DNA from: Bythopirellula sp.
Lineage (GTDB): Bacteria > Planctomycetota > Planctomycetia > Pirellulales > Lacipirellulaceae
NCBI GenBank assembly: GCA_965216565.1
Contig: OZ244170.1
Span: 4,480,001-4,544,000, forward strand
Reading direction: 5' to 3'
Length of the DNA stretch: 64,000 nt
Part shown: piece after piece, positions 22,605 to 33,758 of the stretch
Numbering within the stretch: position 1 is the first letter of the stretch
Layout of the letters: the number at the start of each line of letters is the position of its first letter
Program-made: the position numbers and the translations under genes
Notes under the pieces: generated by a model
Databases searched by the model: none
The model's input: the letters and a program-made list of their open reading frames with translations, nothing else
What the model was told of the DNA's origin: nothing

Positions 22605-24521
22605 CTATCTGGACCGGCTTCTGCAGCTTCCAGCCAGCCCAGCCATTGCCAGCATCGACAACGCCAGGGAACTTGGCTCGGGAACTGAAGTGACAGTCGC
22701 AACCAATCCGAAGACCGATTGGTCACTGCCAGATTGTTCTTGCCAGATAAGTAGATCAAGTCCATTGGTCAGGCCATCGTTATTGGCATCGCCTTGCTCG
22801 TCCGTGCCATAGGCAAGTTCCCAAATGGCGAGGTCAAACCGATCTACCAATCCATCCGCATTGAAATCCGCCGCAAAACCATCAGGCGAAAGTTGAGGCA
22901 GAGTTGCCAGGTCCAACCGATACGCAACCTGATTGTATTCGTAGTTGGGCGTCGAGGGTGCCGAGCCGAAAAAGCCCGACGAGTAGGTGCCGTGGAAATG
23001 AACAAACTGGCCGTCGCCTTCATCAAAGAAAGGAAGCTGCGTTGGGTTGTAAAAGGAATAGGAGCCCCCCAAATCGCCGGTCGGGTCTCCGTGCGTCGCG
23101 ATCTTGATCGCATTTTTCCAAGGGCCTTCGGGAGTCGGTGCCTCGGCGTACCATACCTCGCCTAAGAAGCTTCCATTGCCTGCTGATTCGTTGCCAATCA
23201 TGATCCACTTCTGGCGATACTCATTCCAATTGACCGACGAGCGATGCAGTTTGACATCTTGGCCCGTTTCAAAATCGACTAAGCCGACCGGGGCCTCGGA
23301 ACGCGTGAGGTGGCCGTTGGTCACCATTTCCTCAAAGATCTCCGTGCCCAGGGGGTCGGTATTCTTTTTCCAGCCGTATATTGGGTTGCCGAAGCCGTCT
23401 AAGTCGAGTGGTGGGTTAGATGCGTCATAGCGAAAGTTTTCCTTCAAGGGAGTGAAGGCTTCCCACTGGGTGATGTCGTTGACTGCTGCCCAATCGTCAC
23501 GAACTCGGATATTTGGGTAGTTCTCGCCAAAGTAGATGTAGTCTTCCCCGCCGGTACTATGGCGGAAGGAATGGCCCGCCGGCACGATAGGTGGACCGGT
23601 GCCCCACTCTTGCTGTGGTGCTACCCCGTAGTCGTGGACTTTTGTAAAAGTTCCCGCGGAATGGTCGAACTGAGCCAACCCCTGTTCCAGAAGCACGAAC
23701 ACGGGAAAGAGCGACTGAACATTCACGAAGTGCGCCATGAGTTGCTCGGTGCCGTTGGGGTCTTCGACGGTAAAAACACCATCTACCCAAACGGGCTTAC
23801 CCGTCGACTGGTACTGAGGAAAAGCGGGCTTCGTTTGTCCCAGTCCATCTTCGTAGTAGGTGTAGTCGATGCCAGTACTTGGATTGAGCCCGCCACTAGT
23901 GGGCAATTCTGAGGTAGCTGCCGAAGTGAAGTAATTTCCGCCCAGCCCTCCGCCATTCTCGTACAACGAGTCGCCCCAGAACCAATGGATTTTTCCCCGC
24001 GAAACAACTGGCTGTACCGAATCTTGCCCAAGAACGTTGCCATTACTAATCGGTTCGTTGATTGGTACGTCCAGCCCAAGCTCAACGCTATCCTTGTAAA
24101 TATTGGGACCAGTGGCGCGATACAGTCTCTCGGCTCGATTATGACGGACAACAGAAATCTGACTCAGCGAGCCAGTGGTAGTCGATAACGTGTCGGACTT
24201 GCTCGCGTAGCCATAGCTGGCAAAGTCGAACTGCAGGTTCTGGTTGATCACACCTGCGTGATCGATCGCAATCATGCCCTGGCTGTCGGTGAAATAGGTC
24301 TGACCGCCGACCTTGGCTTGGACCATCGGTACGCCACGCCCGGAGACCGAGTCCACGATCTCCACGGTAAAATAGTTGGGATGCTGGGCTACTACAGAGT
24401 TAGCATTACCAACTAAATAGAGCACCCCAACAATTACGAGAGAGGCAGTCAATTGCTGAGGCAATAGCCGATTGGTGTCCACGACAAGATTGTCCCTCAC
24501 GAACCAGAAGACTTTCAACAC
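22605..24521 (-). CDS. PEP-CTERM protein with DUF4185-like propeller and dockerin-like Ca-binding repeats; start uncertain
   Basis: GQDSV..HWFWGDS..EGPW motifs; ADFNADGLVD..GDANNDGLTNGLDLLIWQ; VPEPSS tail. Confidence 0.75.
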   Translation of the reverse strand: MLKVFWFVRDNLVVDTNRLLPQQLTASLVIVGVLYLVGNANSVVAQHPNYFTVEIVDSVSGRGVPMVQAKVGGQTYFTDSQGMIAIDHAGVINQNLQFDFASYGYASKSDTLSTTTGSLSQISVVRHNRAERLYRATGPNIYKDSVELGLDVPINEPISNGNVLGQDSVQPVVSRGKIHWFWGDSLYENGGGLGGNYFTSAATSELPTSGGLNPSTGIDYTYYEDGLGQTKPAFPQYQSTGKPVWVDGVFTVEDPNGTEQLMAHFVNVQSLFPVFVLLEQGLAQFDHSAGTFTKVHDYGVAPQQEWGTGPPIVPAGHSFRHSTGGEDYIYFGENYPNIRVRDDWAAVNDITQWEAFTPLKENFRYDASNPPLDLDGFGNPIYGWKKNTDPLGTEIFEEMVTNGHLTRSEAPVGLVDFETGQDVKLHRSSVNWNEYRQKWIMIGNESAGNGSFLGEVWYAEAPTPEGPWKNAIKIATHGDPTGDLGGSYSFYNPTQLPFFDEGDGQFVHFHGTYSSGFFGSAPSTPNYEYNQVAYRLDLATLPQLSPDGFAADFNADGLVDRFDLAIWELAYGTDEQGDANNDGLTNGLDLLIWQEQSGSDQSVFGLVATVTSVPEPSSLALSMLAMAGLAGSCRSRSR

Positions 24522-24640: not shown

Positions 24641-25729
24641 TTACTGGTCTCCACGGGGAAAATTCATTTTCTTTTCCAATTGGGCAAACCGCGGATCATT
24701 CCGGATACTGTCGAACCAGGGTTCCACTTGCAGGAAGACCAACTCCCAAGAGTGCTGCTCGTAGGCCTTTTCAAGCATTTCGAAGCCTTCGTCGGTTTCG
24801 CCCAATCCAAAATGCACATAGGCAATTTGCACTGGCGGAACGTAGTGCTGCGCTTCCCATTGCTTGAGCTGTCTGAGGATCCCCTGCGCTTTGACTTTTT
24901 CACCGGCTAGTGCGTAAGCATGCCCCAGCCCAGCCACGATTTCTGCTAGTCCGCCGGATAGTGAGACGGCCTTTTCGTAGGTTTCCAAAGCCTTGGGGAA
25001 TTTTTTCTGCTGCACATAGGCCATGCCGAGCCAATCGTAGGCCGGGGCGAAATCGGAATCTTGTTTGATGGCTATGGGGAGCTCTTTAACCATCCGCTCC
25101 CAATCCCGACCAAAGTACAGCACAGCTCCCATGCCGGTAATCATGCCTGGCGAATCGTCTATCTGGATGGCCCGTTGCGAGTGCTGCAAGGCCTCTTCGT
25201 GTCTGCCCCGCGATGCCAAAAAGAGAGCGTACCAATGAAGCGATTCTGCCTTCTTGGGATCAATCTGAACTGCCTCGGCAAAATGCTTTTCTGCGGCTTC
25301 CCATTCCCACTGAATAAGCTTAGCAATGCCCATGGATGTTTGGGCCCCGGCATCTTTTGGATCGAGCTCAATCGCCTGATTAGCTTGCGAGGTGAGCTTA
25401 GAGAGAATCTCGTCGCGGGGAACGAATCCAAAGCACCACAGCATCGAGTAAGCTTCGACTAGCTTAGCCCGATGTTCTGCCGATCTGGGGACGGAAACGG
25501 TCGCATACTCATACCGCTGGACCATTTCCTCGACACCCTCGCGGAAGGATTCCCCGGGATACTCCACGACAGACATCGAAATTTGTGTGCCTGTATCTTC
25601 AGCGCACAGCTTCGCGTTGGGGCAGAGCACAAAAGTGCAGCAAGTGAGACAGATTAGACGAATAGGAAGCGAGAATTGAATGTGCCTGACAAGAACAGCG
25701 TTGGCTGTAGCGGGTAGCAGCATGTTCAA
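24641..25729 (-). CDS. Secreted TPR protein
   Basis: Signal-like N-terminus; TPR repeats; C-terminal ...VEPWFDSIRNDPRF motif. Confidence 0.8.
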   Translation of the reverse strand: MNMLLPATANAVLVRHIQFSLPIRLICLTCCTFVLCPNAKLCAEDTGTQISMSVVEYPGESFREGVEEMVQRYEYATVSVPRSAEHRAKLVEAYSMLWCFGFVPRDEILSKLTSQANQAIELDPKDAGAQTSMGIAKLIQWEWEAAEKHFAEAVQIDPKKAESLHWYALFLASRGRHEEALQHSQRAIQIDDSPGMITGMGAVLYFGRDWERMVKELPIAIKQDSDFAPAYDWLGMAYVQQKKFPKALETYEKAVSLSGGLAEIVAGLGHAYALAGEKVKAQGILRQLKQWEAQHYVPPVQIAYVHFGLGETDEGFEMLEKAYEQHSWELVFLQVEPWFDSIRNDPRFAQLEKKMNFPRGDQ

Positions 25730-27455: not shown

Positions 27456-30400
27456 ATGGCGCGACGAGGAAAAAAGAAGAAGAAGAGAAAAGCTCCTCGG
27501 AACGTGACGCCGGAGGCGGTGACGTCCGAAACCACGCAAGTGCCTTCGGACCCTCCTGCGAATCGCGTCCCCTGGAGTGCGCTAGGATTGATAGCAGTAG
27601 CCTTGGGCATTGGGCTCGCGATCTACTACCGGGCAGAGCCCCAGAATTCTCAAGACGAAAACAGAGCCGAGAATACGCAGAAGCCGTTCGTGGTGGAAGC
27701 AGATTTGAAGCCAGAGGATCTCGACTCCAAGCTCAATAACGCTACGGAGGTAAGCCTGCAACAGCAAGCAGACAGGCACCTCGACCCCAGCCTCGATGGT
27801 TGGGATACCGAAGTGATTGCCGAGCAGGCTAAGGTTCAACTCAAGCACCTCACGAAGAGATTGTCCGGCGCCGATTTGCCACGTTCCACCTGGGACGAAA
27901 TATCACCGCAGGTAGTCAGCGGGGCCCTTCGTCCCCAGTCGTTGAAAGAAGTGTTCCAAAATGGTGACTCCGGGAGCGCTATCAGGGTTAGGCGTCCGAC
28001 AGGGAACGAACCGCAGCCAGAGGTTCAAGGGCACTCAGAACTGCTCCGTGTTCTGGATGAATTGGCCGAGCCCTTTGGCTCCCAGGACGATATTCACACC
28101 AAGATAAAGGTGATACGGGTAACTGCCACGGCTGACACGGCAGAAACGACAGCGTACTACGAAGCTGATTGCCCTGTGGGGAACGGAAAGCTGCAACAGA
28201 GGGCCACTTGGCATTGCCAGTGGAAACAGACGCCGAGCGGATCTCTGCTATTGACCTCTATCAGAGCTGAGGATTTCGAAGAAGTGCTTACTGAAAGTCC
28301 CTGGTTCGTGGATTGCACGACCGCTGCACTCGGTAAGAACAAATCATTCCACGAGCAGCTCGTCTACGGGCTCAATCATTGGCTTCCTCGGCTGGGACGG
28401 GTGAAAGGTATGTTCGTTTACACTCGCAACGGGTTGAGTGTGGGAGACGTCAATGGCGATGGATTAGACGACTTGTACGTCTGTCAGCCAGGCGGACTTC
28501 CCAATCGGCTCTACATCCAGCAGCCCGATGGTACTTTGGTCGATCGCTCCCGTGAGGCGGGAGTCGACTGGCTAGACAAGACGACAAGCAGTTTGCTAAT
28601 CGACCTGGACAACGATGGCGATCAAGATCTTGCGGCGGCGACTATTTCTGGTTTGCTGATCATGGAGAACGATGGATCTGGCAAATTCAAATTGAAGAAC
28701 ACATTGGCTAGTAACGACATCGATACGCAATCAGTCTCCGCGGCCGATTACGATAACGATGGCGATCTCGACCTGTTTCTTTGCATCGAATTTGCCAGGA
28801 AGTCGACTCTAGGCCGTCAGTCGGATGTGAGGTTCGTCTATCACAATGCGAATGACGGAGCGGCGAATATCTTGTATCGCAACGATATTGCGAATAAGTC
28901 TTGGAAGTTCACCAACGTGACGAAGCAGACTGGGTTGGACGAGAACAATCGTCGTCATAGTCTGGCTTGTGCCTGGGAGGACTTCGACAACGACGGCGAC
29001 CAGGACCTCTATGTGGCGAACGACTACGGCCACAATTGCCTTTATCGAAACACCGACGGAAAGTTCGAGGACATTGCCGACGAGGTCAACGCACTCGACA
29101 CGGCCTCGGGAATGTCTGCCAGTTGGGGAGATTTCGACCACGATGGCTGGATGGACTTATACGTTGCCAACATGTTCTCCTCGGCAGGAAATCGGATCAC
29201 TCGGCAGGAGCAATTCAACTCGGGCAAGGATTCGCTGCAGGGAGTCTACTCGCGTTTTGCCAAGGGCAACACGCTGCTTCGCAATGTCAATGCCGAGCAG
29301 TTCAGCGACGTGGGGGCTGCCGCAAATGTTGAGATGGGACGCTGGGCTTGGAGCAGTGTGTTCTCCGATCTGAACAACGATTCCTGGGACGACTTGCTTG
29401 TTGCTAATGGATACATCTCGACCGAAGACTCGGGTGATTTGTGAAGTTTCTTCTGGCGGCAGGTCGTGTCGCAGGGTGGGAGTCCTACTAGCAGTGCTTC
29501 TGGCAACAGCGCTTCTGACGATCACGGTGCGCCGATGGGAGCCACGTTGCACACGTTAGTTCGTCAGGGTCGCGCCTTTAGCGGTAATGAGAAGAATTGT
29601 AGTTTTCTGAATTTGGGAGACGGAAACTTTGCCGACATCTCGGCTGTCTGCGGCTTTGATTTCCCCGACGACGGACGGGCGATCGCCCAGTGCGACTGGG
29701 ATGCTGACGGCGATGTCGATCTTTGGGTGGCAAACCGAAATGGACCTCAGGTGCGTTTCTTGAGAAACGACCTACAGTCTGGCAATCACTTCTTGTCCCT
29801 GCGTTTGGAAGGCAAAGACTGCAATCGCGATGCGATCGGAGCGCGTGTCGAGGTTGTTCTACAAGACGAATCAAACAGTCGGTTGATTAAGACTCTCAGG
29901 GCAGGAGAAGGTTTCTTGGCCCAATCGAGTAAGTGGGTTCATTTTGGGTTGGGATCGTCCGGCACGGAGGTTGATGTCAGTGTGACTTGGCCGGGCGGGG
30001 AGAAGGAGTCTTTCGGCTTGGTGGCGGCAGACGGTCGCTACTTGCTCGTCCAACACGCAGGACAAGCTCAGCCTGTATCGTCCCCAGCGCAAGGACAGGA
30101 TTTAAAACCTGAAACACTAAGAAAGCGCAAGACGGAGTCTGTGGCGCGAATACACTCCGCGGCAAAGATGCCTATGCCCGCTGTCAAATACGAAACGTTT
30201 GAGGGGCAGAAACGTCTTCTTGACTTTCACAACAGTGGGAAGCCAATTTTAATCAATCTCTGGGCGAGTTGGTGTCGAGCGTGTTTGGTCGAGTTGAAAG
30301 AGTTTGCTGAGCACTCGCAAGAGATAGAGGACTCGGGCCTGGAGATGTGGGCGCTATCGGTCGACAGACTTGATCTTGAAAAAGGCGACGAGTCTAACGT

Positions 30401-31193
30401 AGCCCCTGGGCAGTTGCAGGGCCTAGGCTTCGCGGGAAAAGCGGGTTGGGCCACTGAGAATACAACCGAAATTCTGCGTCTCATCAGGGAGCATCTGTTT
30501 GATACTCACCAGCCGATGCCGCTTCCCACAAGCATGTTGATCGATGCAAAAGGCCGCGTTTCCACAATTTATTATGGGCCCGTGCGTGTCGAGCAACTTT
30601 TAGAAGACGTAGCTTTGCTAGAAGAGTCGCTGCGAGCAGAGACGATGCCATTCCCAGGTCGGTGGCGAACTACTCCCCGCGGGATGAGTCCACTCGATCT
30701 TGTGTGGCAGATGGTTGAATCCGGCTATCAAGCACAAGCGATCGACTACGTCCAGCACCATCGGCCCTTAATCGAAAACCAGTACAAGGCTCCTAAGCTG
30801 TTTGTTCTTATCGGCAACAATGAGTTGAGCCGAGGGAATGCGGAGAATGCAGTCCGCTATTACAAAGACGCACTCGCGCTCGACGTGGATTATGACGAGG
30901 CCCTGAATAATCTCGCTTGGGTCTTAGCGACCAATCCAGATGAGAAATTGCGGGACGGCAAAGAAGCCGTGCGACTAGCGAGTGCGGCTGTGAGCCAGAA
31001 ACGGGGAAATACAATTTCTATGTTAGCCACCCTCTCTGTGGCCTATGCCGAGGATGGACAATTCGAGCAGGCGGTGCAAGTCGCGGAAGAGGCACAGGAA
31101 CTTGCTCGGGCCCAAGGCCATCAAGCGTTGGTCAAAGAATTGGAAAAACGTATTCGGGGCTTCAAAGAAGGCAGGCCTCATCGTTCCCCCTAA
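27456..31193 (+). CDS. Candidate selenoprotein: TM anchor + FG-GAP/CRTAC1 propeller + ASPIC/UnbV + TlpA-like redoxin (WCRAC) + TPR, read through TGA at 29442-29444 (1245 aa). Otherwise two ORFs, 27456-29444 and 29466-31193
   Basis: Both ORFs are in the same frame, joined by TGA AGT TTC TTC TGG CGG CAG GTC GTG (DL*SFFWRQVV). FG-GAP repeats (GDVNGDGLDDLY, DFDNDGDQDLYVAND) continue after the stop (DWDADGDVDLWVANR). ASPIC NRDAIGARVEV..VHFGLG; INLWASWCRAC; ALNNLAWVLAT. Domain calls are high confidence; read-through is moderate. Confidence 0.7.
29453..29474 (+). promoter_or_regulatory. Putative bacterial SECIS hairpin
   Basis: CU-(G bulge)-GCGGCA[GGUCG]UGUCGC-AG. The loop starts 17 nt after the UGA and shares GCAGGUC with the E. 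coli fdhF SECIS apex. Confidence 0.6.
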
Positions 31194-32642: not shown

Positions 32643-33758
32643 ATGCGTACACCGCGTTCCGCAACAACTCGTGCGTTCACTCTTGTAGAGTTATTGGTGG
32701 TAATTTCCATCATTGGGGTCTTGGTTTCCTTGTTGCTTCCTGCGGTCCAGGCAGCTCGAGAGGCGGCCCGGCGCGCGCAATGTTTGAACCATTTACGGCA
32801 AATGGGCCTTGGTGCCCTCAATCACGAGTCGGGGCACAAGATTCTCCCAGGAGCTGGCTGGGCCCCATGGTTGGCGGGCGACCCCGATCGAGGCGTTGGG
32901 CGCGACCAACCTGGGAGCTGGATCTACCAATTGCTGCCTTATGTGGAATACCAAAATGTGTACGACCTTCCCTCCGACGGGGATGCGTTGAATTATCGTA
33001 CGACTACCCAACGAGAAGCCACGAAACAGATGTTGGAGACACCGATCTCTATATTCAATTGCCCCTCGCGCAGACCCGCAGCTTTGTATCCTTGGGATGA
33101 TACATTGCCCAGCCTTTTCAACGTGATCAATGCTGATCCTTCGGAGGCCACGGCTCATAGTGACTACGCTGGCAATGCAGGAGATGCGTTTCCCGATGAA
33201 GGTTTAAATGGTGGGCTGCTCGACTTCTTTTTTAGGAGCCAAGAGTGCGGAAACAAAGGCCCTGATGACTTTGCAGAAGTTTTTCCTCCGCGACCATCGG
33301 CCGGCAAGTACACAAGAGTTGATGAACAGTTCTGCTGGCCCTCCGAGGATACACAAACGGGAGTTTGCTTCTTGGGCGCTGAAATGAGGCTTGTGGAAAT
33401 CACCGATGGCACCTCAAATACTTTCTTGTTTGGCGAAAAAGGCATGAATTCCGCGCTGTACGACACAGGCACAGATGGCGGCGACAACCAGTCTATGTAT
33501 TGCGGTTGGGATTGGGATGTGAATCGCTGGGGAGGTGGGCCTCGTTTTGATCTTGGTCTCGAATCGGCATTCATTCCCAAGCCAGATCAAGCGAACAACG
33601 ATCTAGATACTTGGCTTACCTGGGGGAGTTCCCATCCGGGCGGTTATCTGGTTGTATTATGCGATGGTTCCTCAACTTTCATTAGCTATGATCTGGATAC
33701 TAGGGCACTGGCTAATTTTTGTAACCGTTTTGATGGTGACGTCTCCAACGGAAACTGA
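32643..33758 (+). CDS. DUF1559 prepilin-type N-terminal cleavage/methylation domain protein
   Basis: AFTLVELLVVISIIGVLVSLLLPAVQAAREAARR; ITDGTSNT; SHPGG...CDGS (H-X9-DG). Confidence 0.96.
   Translation: MRTPRSATTRAFTLVELLVVISIIGVLVSLLLPAVQAAREAARRAQCLNHLRQMGLGALNHESGHKILPGAGWAPWLAGDPDRGVGRDQPGSWIYQLLPYVEYQNVYDLPSDGDALNYRTTTQREATKQMLETPISIFNCPSRRPAALYPWDDTLPSLFNVINADPSEATAHSDYAGNAGDAFPDEGLNGGLLDFFFRSQECGNKGPDDFAEVFPPRPSAGKYTRVDEQFCWPSEDTQTGVCFLGAEMRLVEITDGTSNTFLFGEKGMNSALYDTGTDGGDNQSMYCGWDWDVNRWGGGPRFDLGLESAFIPKPDQANNDLDTWLTWGSSHPGGYLVVLCDGSSTFISYDLDTRALANFCNRFDGDVSNGN

Follow-up and report, generated by a model that had tools for sequence, protein, structure and literature searches.

A Predicted SECIS-Dependent Selenoprotein of the FG-GAP/ASPIC Propeller Family in Bythopirellula sp.

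The Locus and Its Gene

The DNA analysed here (the window) is a stretch of 64,000 nucleotides (nt) from Bythopirellula sp., a member of the Planctomycetota (assembly GCA_965216565.1, contig OZ244170.1, forward-strand positions 4,480,001 to 4,544,000). Within it, two open reading frames (ORFs), 27456-29444 (662 amino acids) and 29466-31193 (575 amino acids), lie in the same frame and very probably form a single gene with a product of about 137 kDa. We predict that the UGA between them, at 29442-29444, is decoded as selenocysteine (Sec) by the SelB/tRNA-Sec system, and we put the probability of this reading at roughly 0.9. Read-through translation of 27456-31193 confirms the claim of a first-pass annotation that this TGA is the only interruption; it yields 1245 residues, of which the TGA accounts for residue 663, in the context ...NGYISTEDSGDL-U-SFFWRQVVSQ.... 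The features of the gene are as follows.

27456..31193, + strand: complete gene when its single in-frame TGA is read through (1245 codons); full-length homologues likewise containing one TGA are known
27573..27629, + strand: N-terminal hydrophobic segment, residues 40-58, following a Lys/Arg-rich tail (Kyte-Doolittle 19-residue mean 2.09)
28413..29795, + strand: FG-GAP beta-propeller, approximately residues 320-780, unbroken across the TGA (Pfam FG-GAP_3, 7.4e-37, five stretches)
29442..29444, + strand: TGA read as predicted selenocysteine, residue 663, first residue of a modelled helix (model residues 374-382), from conservation and the model
29456..29472, + strand: putative core hairpin of a selenocysteine insertion sequence (SECIS), GCGGCA [GGUCG] UGUCGC, nt +14 to +30 with the U of UGA as 0 (alignment A1)
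29598..29600, + strand: Cys715 (ERNC motif), candidate resolving cysteine for Sec663, from cysteine frequencies by form
29832..30041, + strand: ASPIC/UnbV domain, residues 793-862 (Pfam PF07593, 2.2e-14)
30162..30587, + strand: TlpA/ResA-like thioredoxin-fold domain, residues 903-1044 (Pfam AhpC-TSA and Redoxin)
30273..30284, + strand: C940-x-x-C943 within the TlpA/ResA-like domain (WCRAC at 939-943)
30804..31112, + strand: C-terminal tetratricopeptide repeat (TPR) region, approximately residues 1117-1219 (Pfam TPR families at E 3e-4 to 9e-3, none reaching its curated cut-off)

In the Pfam matches, FG-GAP repeats flank the TGA and are followed by UnbV_ASPIC in the same chain, which bears out the earlier remark that the propeller is unfinished at the stop. 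The scores (FG-GAP_3 126 bits, FG-GAP 72, UnbV_ASPIC 53.5) each exceed the family's own cut-off. The thioredoxin-fold region falls below the curated NCBIfam cut-offs for TlpA (43.7 bits against 230) and ResA (39.8 against 170); residues 903-1044 are thus a predicted domain related to TlpA and ResA and not an orthologue of either. Many TPR families are also present in the homologues.

The hydrophobic segment at residues 40-58 is read as a probable signal anchor, which would leave the N-terminus inside and the remainder of the protein outside; together with the TlpA-type domain, it suggests an extracytoplasmic protein. Among 66 copies with the TGA (TGA forms, or Sec forms when the protein is meant) that have a near-complete N-terminus, 41 reach a hydropathy of at least 1.8 over a 19-residue window, and in several of the rest the segment closes with a lipobox-like ...GC motif. 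In place of the signal anchor, many Sec forms, e.g., those of loci L042, L043, L044, L048, and L052, have a signal of lipoprotein type that terminates in ...GCG or ...GCS.

Conservation of the In-Frame TGA

The read-through protein was searched against 41 genomes, its own and those of 40 relatives. Of the listed matches, 45 have at least 40% identity and span residue 663, and every one of them contains an in-frame TGA. So do four weaker ones (31-36% identity) among the matches listed; another 331 weaker matches stand outside the list. The closest relatives (59%, 58%, and 51% identity) were a place where a sense codon might have exposed a private nonsense mutation, and they retain the TGA. Forty-three of the 45 have exactly one TGA, one has an additional TAG, and one has two TGA codons; the TAG occurs in G032:C76:16812-20363 and the two TGA codons in G011:C3:108266-110383, so that some copies could be in decay or encode a second Sec.

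The family is often multicopy. The Bythopirellula genome has two further paralogues (51% and 43% identity), making three in all, each with one TGA and the hairpin, and the relative G033 contains 12 with an identity of 42% or higher and three that match more weakly. Paralogues often stand in tandem, three in G032:C76:16812-28207 and two in G033:C243:12186-18759, and locus L081 has two TGA sites.

A combination of tblastn and motif scanning located the TGA at the same site, NG-x(8-11)-L-U-S-x-x-W-R/K (DL-U-SFFWRQV in the window gene), in 36 distinct copies. A scan of one genome per GTDB species then gave 79 loci; the motif site was found in 55 of them (56 sites), and the 24 loci without it, some of them truncated or more distant, are excluded from every count. 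The 56 sites comprise 34 TGA and 22 sense codons (AAC 6, AAT 3, TCG 3, TCC 3, TCA 1, GCA 2, GAG 2, GGC 1, and CAG 1). TGA forms come from Planctomycetota, Verrucomicrobiota, and Acidobacteriota, with sources including Pirellulaceae, Planctomycetaceae, Phycisphaerae, Akkermansiaceae, Roseibacillus, Verrucomicrobiales, Bryobacterales, and Pyrinomonadaceae; sense forms come from Terriglobales, Acidobacteriaceae, Bryobacteraceae, and similar groups. Pooling gave 70 distinct TGA forms from the three phyla and 23 sense forms, to which metagenome contigs add 13 more TGA forms. The first-pass annotation had named TAA or TAG in homologues as evidence against recoding; neither ever occurs at the site among these 70 and 13 forms.

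In practice, the family can be recognised by an invariant motif that runs for about 31 nt and consists of TGA, 9 nt, and TGGCGRCAGGTCGTGYCGC. Searched exactly, as TGA-N9-TGGCGRCAGGTCGTGYCGC, it occurs in 7 of the 201 genomes of an even phylum sample (18 matches, with none for the reversed control), and its exactly three matches in the Bythopirellula genome are the three paralogues.

This conservation bears on the simplest alternative, namely that the TGA is a fresh nonsense mutation, the mark of a pseudogene, or a sequencing error. The same TGA recurs in 70 and 13 distinct homologues, the most distant of about 31% identity, with frames intact on both sides, and in each of the three paralogues, where it is accompanied by the hairpin. 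In independent DNA, contigs from two other studies have TGA 29442-29444 without a listed difference (X5 record 2, spanning 29000-29473, and X6 record 11, spanning 29308-29473 with 0 other letters). Homologue conservation and independent DNA together refute this alternative. In three metagenomes, read depth rises 5- to 15-fold over 29434-29473, with its peak at 29434-29464, and contigs stop at 29473 or start at 29444, because this short stretch is common to so many paralogues that it acts as a repeat and fragments assemblies.

The Putative SECIS Hairpin

A SECIS-like hairpin 3' of the UGA had been proposed when the locus was first annotated, and the homologues uphold it. The family consensus of the 17-nt hairpin is GCGRCA[GGUCG]UGUCGC. 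In the alignment of 36 copies (A1), 99.5% of the 216 cells are paired, against 10.6-67.6% when the register is slid. Pair 18-28 is G-U in 19 copies, A-U in 16, and G-C in one, and pair 20-26 has undergone three compensatory double changes from A-U to G-C. A wider set contains further pairs: C-G (L081), U-A (L126), U-G (L085), and, at pair 16-30, A-U (L091).

Conservation of the hairpin alone would be weak evidence, because the stem overlaps the conserved peptide WRQVVS, and sense forms were therefore used as the control. All six pairs are intact in 66 of the 70 TGA forms and in none of the 23 sense forms, of which three keep five pairs, eight keep four, four keep three, and eight keep two. The codons for the two valines are GTC and GTG in 61 and 59 of the 70 TGA forms, respectively, and mixed in the sense forms; the codon that follows them is TCG in 59 of the 70 TGA forms and GCN or GGN in the sense forms.

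The hairpin resembles the SECIS of Escherichia coli K-12 fdhF in that a stem-loop spanning +14 to +30 lies inside the ORF downstream of an in-frame UGA and presents a GGUC loop after a stem ending in ...CA; CAGGUC falls at +19 to +24 in fdhF and at +18 to +23 in the window gene. The SECIS of fdhF has a bulged U. The hairpin here differs in consisting of six continuous pairs and a 5-nt loop, with no bulged U seen. The two proteins are unrelated, and the Sec of the window protein is not known to bind a cofactor. From these comparisons we identify the hairpin as a conserved, putative SECIS of the fdhF type.

The same stretch contains the restart codon on which another explanation depends. In that explanation, the gene is a conserved split gene: translation stops at the UGA and restarts at GTG 29466, and the two polypeptides assemble. 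The GTG lies 24 nt past the TGA and is kept in 59 of the 70 TGA forms, and such loci do emerge from gene callers as two genes (Kim et al. 2016, PMC4807772, footnote to Table S9). The GTG is also part of the hairpin, however, and is replaced by GCG in five forms, CTG in two, and GTA in one; the GCG forms carry a matching change that preserves the stem and not the start codon. Moreover, a split here would interrupt the propeller where a modelled helix begins, homologues without the interruption have a sense codon in this very position, and a split gene would leave the link with selA described below unexplained. We regard this explanation as hardly credible.

Capacity for Selenocysteine Synthesis

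A search of the genome for the sel genes, which the first-pass annotation had called for, recovered selA, selB, selD, and tRNA-Sec, the components of the SelB-dependent recoding known for fdhF. The genome is one contig (C1) of 5.21 Mb, and all four lie within 6 kb at C1:683744-689622: selA at 683744-684844 (420 bits), the SelB wing domain at 685152-685286 inside a 663-codon frame, selD at 688407-689324 (275.7 bits), and tRNA-Sec at 689527-689622 (72.6 bits), with the anticodon UCA according to ARAGORN. Here selD is part of a fusion whose N-terminal portion is a pyridine nucleotide-disulphide oxidoreductase domain (Pyr_redox_2, 1.2e-23, residues 9-293); the fused ORF, at 316-2526 of the stretch C1:686907-690824, has 736 codons, with AIRS and AIRS_C at residues 436-727. 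The tRNA-Sec lies about 200 nt downstream of fused selD, and selA and selB are on the other strand within the same 6 kb. A second, partial SelA-like match of 74 bits, covering positions 168-366 of the profile, lies at C1:2949876-2950457 within a frame of 385 codons, and similar partial matches occur in relatives without full selA (G004 and G015).

TGA forms follow the machinery closely. Fifteen of the 40 relatives have TGA forms, and 14 of these possess a full-length selA, the exception (G030) being an incomplete genome (72%); of the 25 relatives without TGA forms, 8 possess it. In the species scan, selA was found in 30 of the 33 genomes of TGA-form loci and in 12 of the 17 of sense-form loci, a survey that left out five sense-form loci (L100, L115, L117, L128, and L130). 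In total, 44 of the 48 other genomes carrying TGA forms have selA, so that the restriction of TGA forms to genomes with this gene is almost complete. TGA forms are, by these searches, almost confined to genomes predicted to be able to make Sec, and the converse does not hold. No statistical test was applied to this link, because the genomes are related to one another.

The link also bears on whether the UGA might be read through without SelB, for instance by a near-cognate tRNA aided by the hairpin, which would put Trp, Cys, or Arg at residue 663. The four genomes with TGA forms in which selA was not found would suit such a mechanism, and sequence data do not tell which residue enters at 663. 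Against it stand the fdhF SECIS span and GGUC loop of the hairpin, the 44 of 48 genomes with selA together with the incompleteness of one exception, and the lack of TGG and CGA among the 23 sense forms. We consider SelB-independent read-through very improbable.

The Site in Uninterrupted Relatives

The 120 best near-length database homologues were examined at the site. These proteins are mostly acidobacterial, bear names such as TPR, FG-GAP, or redoxin protein, and form a set biased against TGA forms, since gene callers split those. The residue at the site is Ser in 33, Asn in 28, Ala in 27, Cys in 8, Gly in 7, Glu in 5, Asp in 5, His in 4, Gln in 2, and Tyr in 1. Cys forms are known from protein sequences, and one of them (P0004) is identical in three sources. 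Among the 23 sense-codon forms read as DNA, 22 of them from the species scan, none has TGT or TGC at the site. A metagenome scan with P0004 found only relatives of at most 44% identity and did not retrieve the P0004 contig; the 13 sites that it yielded were all TGA. Of the two codon patterns that the first-pass annotation had expected across homologues, conserved TGA is thus clear and Cys is rare, and on the sequences at hand the site is not a classical Sec/Cys pair.

Several observations weigh against decoding of the UGA as Sec. For a catalytic Sec, it is unusual that no more than 8 of the 120 uninterrupted homologues have Cys at the site, and selA was not found in 4 of the 48 genomes with TGA forms (one of them 72% complete, the other three metagenome-assembled). 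The stem is imperfect in 4 of the 70 TGA forms (five pairs in three, four pairs in one). Three of its six pairs are invariant in A1, and its conservation is partly at the protein level, given the overlap with WRQVVS. The 95-nt region folds no better than shuffled sequences (z +1.26; 184 of 200 shuffles were at least as stable), so that the case for the hairpin rests on conservation, and a permissive Rfam search of 29380-29580 gave no SECIS match, returning only a chance match to a small nucleolar RNA (E 9.1).

Predicted Structure

An AlphaFold2 model of residues 290-1075, built from a 60-row alignment (A3), has a mean predicted local distance difference test score of 92.1 and a predicted template modelling score of 0.93. 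The best Foldseek match of the model is murine CRTAC1 (9etn_A, E 8.9e-26, target TM 0.69, 622 columns). A sequence profile search of the PDB was dominated by TPR proteins and also found CRTAC1 (9etn) at E 8.9e-30. The modelled fold matches the solved CRTAC1 structure, with an FG-GAP propeller and an ASPIC/UnbV domain in a single chain in both. The two differ in that identity is 15% and the bacterial protein has an extra signal anchor, TlpA-like domain, and TPRs. To our knowledge, CRTAC1 has not been recorded as a selenoprotein. For the C-terminal domain, Foldseek found ResA (2f9s, E 2.9e-10) and TlpA (1jfu), with E values of 1e-9 to 1e-10.

The first-pass annotation had placed Sec at residue 663 in a propeller loop. 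The residue stands, the plain loop does not: in the model, Sec663 (model residue 374) opens a helix (374-382) directly after a strand (369-372). Strands are predicted on both sides of residue 663, and model residues 387-403 are disordered. Cys715 (model residue 426) starts a predicted strand at 426-430, and the CxxC (model residues 651 and 654) lies at the N-terminus of a predicted helix at 652-663. The N-terminus of a helix is the usual position of the redox-active Cys or Sec in thioredoxin-fold enzymes.

Co-variation of Cysteines with Selenocysteine

An alignment of 213 sequences (70 Sec forms, 8 Cys forms, and 134 other forms) was used to compare cysteine frequencies at other positions, with the following results.

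Position 715: Sec forms 0.80, Cys forms 0.75, other forms 0.07
Position 940: Sec forms 0.99, Cys forms 0.67, other forms 0.14
Position 943: Sec forms 0.99, Cys forms 0.29, other forms 0.50
Position 378: Sec forms 0.03, Cys forms 0, other forms 0.76
Position 505: Sec forms 0.07, Cys forms 0, other forms 0.77

Cys343 and Cys443 are common in all three groups. A FastTree phylogeny of 210 sequences, computed with the site column removed and rooted at its midpoint, which is a weak rooting, separates a 102-member sense clade (Asn, Ser, and Ala at the site) from the remaining 108 sequences (70 Sec forms, 8 Cys forms, and 30 others). In the sense clade, 95 members have both Cys378 and Cys505, three have an intact CxxC, and two have Cys715 or Cys716. 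Among the 108, the CxxC is intact in 67 of the 70 Sec forms, 2 of the 8 Cys forms (five of which lack the region), and 11 of the 30 others; Cys715 or Cys716 is present in 58, 6, and 11 of these groups, respectively. Sec forms are basal to many subclades and also lie beside the sense clade (L093 and L076). This topology suggests, within the limits of the weak rooting, that Sec is old in the family and has been lost repeatedly, usually along with the cysteines of a putative relay considered below.

The Cys pair at 378 and 505 (28587-28589 and 28968-28970) characterizes the acidobacterial sense clade, and the window protein itself has Cys505. The pair may be a structural disulfide that replaces or excludes Sec chemistry.

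A Possible Redox Relay on the Propeller

If the UGA is read as Sec, a mechanism can be outlined. On arrival of the ribosome at the UGA, SelB·GTP·Sec-tRNA-Sec would bind the hairpin (29456-29472); after export, the propeller would use Sec663, at the N-terminus of its helix, as a nucleophile; Sec663 would form a selenenylsulfide with Cys715 as the resolving residue; and the fused CxxC domain would re-reduce Sec663. The product would be an extracytoplasmic selenol-thiol oxidoreductase. A relay of Sec663, Cys715, and the CxxC is suggested because Sec forms keep Cys715 and the CxxC and sense forms are mostly without them. The proposal that the WCRAC domain could reduce the Sec dates from the first-pass annotation and gains from the retention of the CxxC (intact in 67 of 70 Sec forms, compared with 3 of 102 members of the sense clade), although it keeps its conditional standing. 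We hold the relay, with Sec663 as the redox-active residue of the propeller, to be a tentative proposal whose chances fall a little short of even.

Two features of the data count against the relay: 12 of the 70 Sec forms have no Cys at 715 or 716, and the Sec forms are related to one another, so that their co-variation is not independent. The first of these also favours a different role, in which Sec is inserted and stands outside any thiol relay, as a metal- or metalloid-binding, sacrificial, or structural residue, and the CxxC serves another client. The fold evidently needs no redox residue at the site, the residue being other than Cys in 112 of the 120 uninterrupted homologues; the read-through translation has no UxxC or CxxU motif around Sec663; and TlpA-type domains among the PDB matches act on separate clients, e.g., ScoI and CoxB, to go by the entry titles. 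Such a role is opposed by the retention of the CxxC and Cys715 with Sec and their frequent loss without it, and by the modelled position of Sec at a helix N-terminus, generally the redox-active one. We judge it unlikely, while taking it seriously.

A broader form of the relay proposal can be stated as speculation that we think will probably prove wrong in some part. The relay of Sec663, Cys715, and the CxxC on a beta-propeller would represent a class of extracytoplasmic selenoenzyme unrelated to the thioredoxin-fold or molybdopterin selenoproteins, and Sec would be ancestral in the bacterial CRTAC1-like family, having been lost many times together with the relay cysteines and mostly to residues other than Cys. 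If this were true, the family would give a hint that the CRTAC1 fold began as a catalytic one, and in some marine Planctomycetota no other family would supply as many selenoproteins, to judge from the 12 strong and three weaker copies in one relative.

Place among Known Selenoproteins

The first-pass annotation knew of no characterised selenoprotein family with this architecture. That holds for the catalogues, and candidates are on record in one supplementary table. Table S9 of Kim et al. (2016, PLoS One, PMC4807772) contains selenoprotein candidates with the same domain description, each annotated as a pair of neighbouring genes; bSECISearch detected a SECIS in three of four, and the closest NCBI hit has Gly at the site. 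Candidates P1 and P2 of that study probably belong to the same family, being likened to it by description alone. Table S9 presents no conservation, hairpin covariation, distribution, or Cys co-variation, and the part of the main text available to us does not mention ASPIC or FG-GAP. Apart from that study, full-text literature searches found nothing on a selenoprotein family with an FG-GAP/ASPIC propeller.

Neither the accessible part of a 2026 review of prokaryotic selenoproteins, which covers 119 families, its Table 1 included, nor the text and one supplementary file of BSepDB (111 families, built by homology) has an FG-GAP, ASPIC, CRTAC, or propeller entry, and no NCBIfam selenoprotein model matches the propeller. 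The window protein scores 22.6 bits against NCBIfam WAxxUGC_long, whose cut-off is 300. In the catalogue sections available, selenoproteins with a TlpA/ResA-like domain outside the cytoplasm have that domain type and location in common with the window protein. They differ in that Sec replaces a cysteine of the CxxC, whereas here the CxxC is all Cys and Sec lies about 280 residues upstream, in the propeller. The gene thus encodes a predicted SECIS-dependent selenoprotein of a family recorded only as supplementary-table candidates and missing from the catalogues; the recoding mechanism is textbook, and it is the protein family that is new to them.

With no catalogue entry or NCBIfam model, annotation pipelines cut these genes in two. 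The selenoproteomes of Planctomycetota, Verrucomicrobiota, and some Acidobacteriota are consequently undercounted; in the extreme case, a dozen or more genes are missed in one genome. The protein would be a large selenoprotein probably placed outside the cytoplasm, with Sec on a beta-propeller at a site that is not Cys in most sense relatives, a departure from the usual Sec/Cys pattern. The family offers an entry point to the biochemistry of CRTAC1-like proteins.

Neighbouring Genes

The neighbours (a TPR protein, an unassigned ORF, a DUF4185 protein, a DUF1559/N-methyl protein, and an EF-hand protein) show no sign of an operon partner. On the minus strand lie genes for a PEP-CTERM protein (22605-24521) and a stand-alone TPR protein (24641-25729); on the plus strand, 32643-33758 encodes the DUF1559 protein, which has an N-terminal methylation motif.

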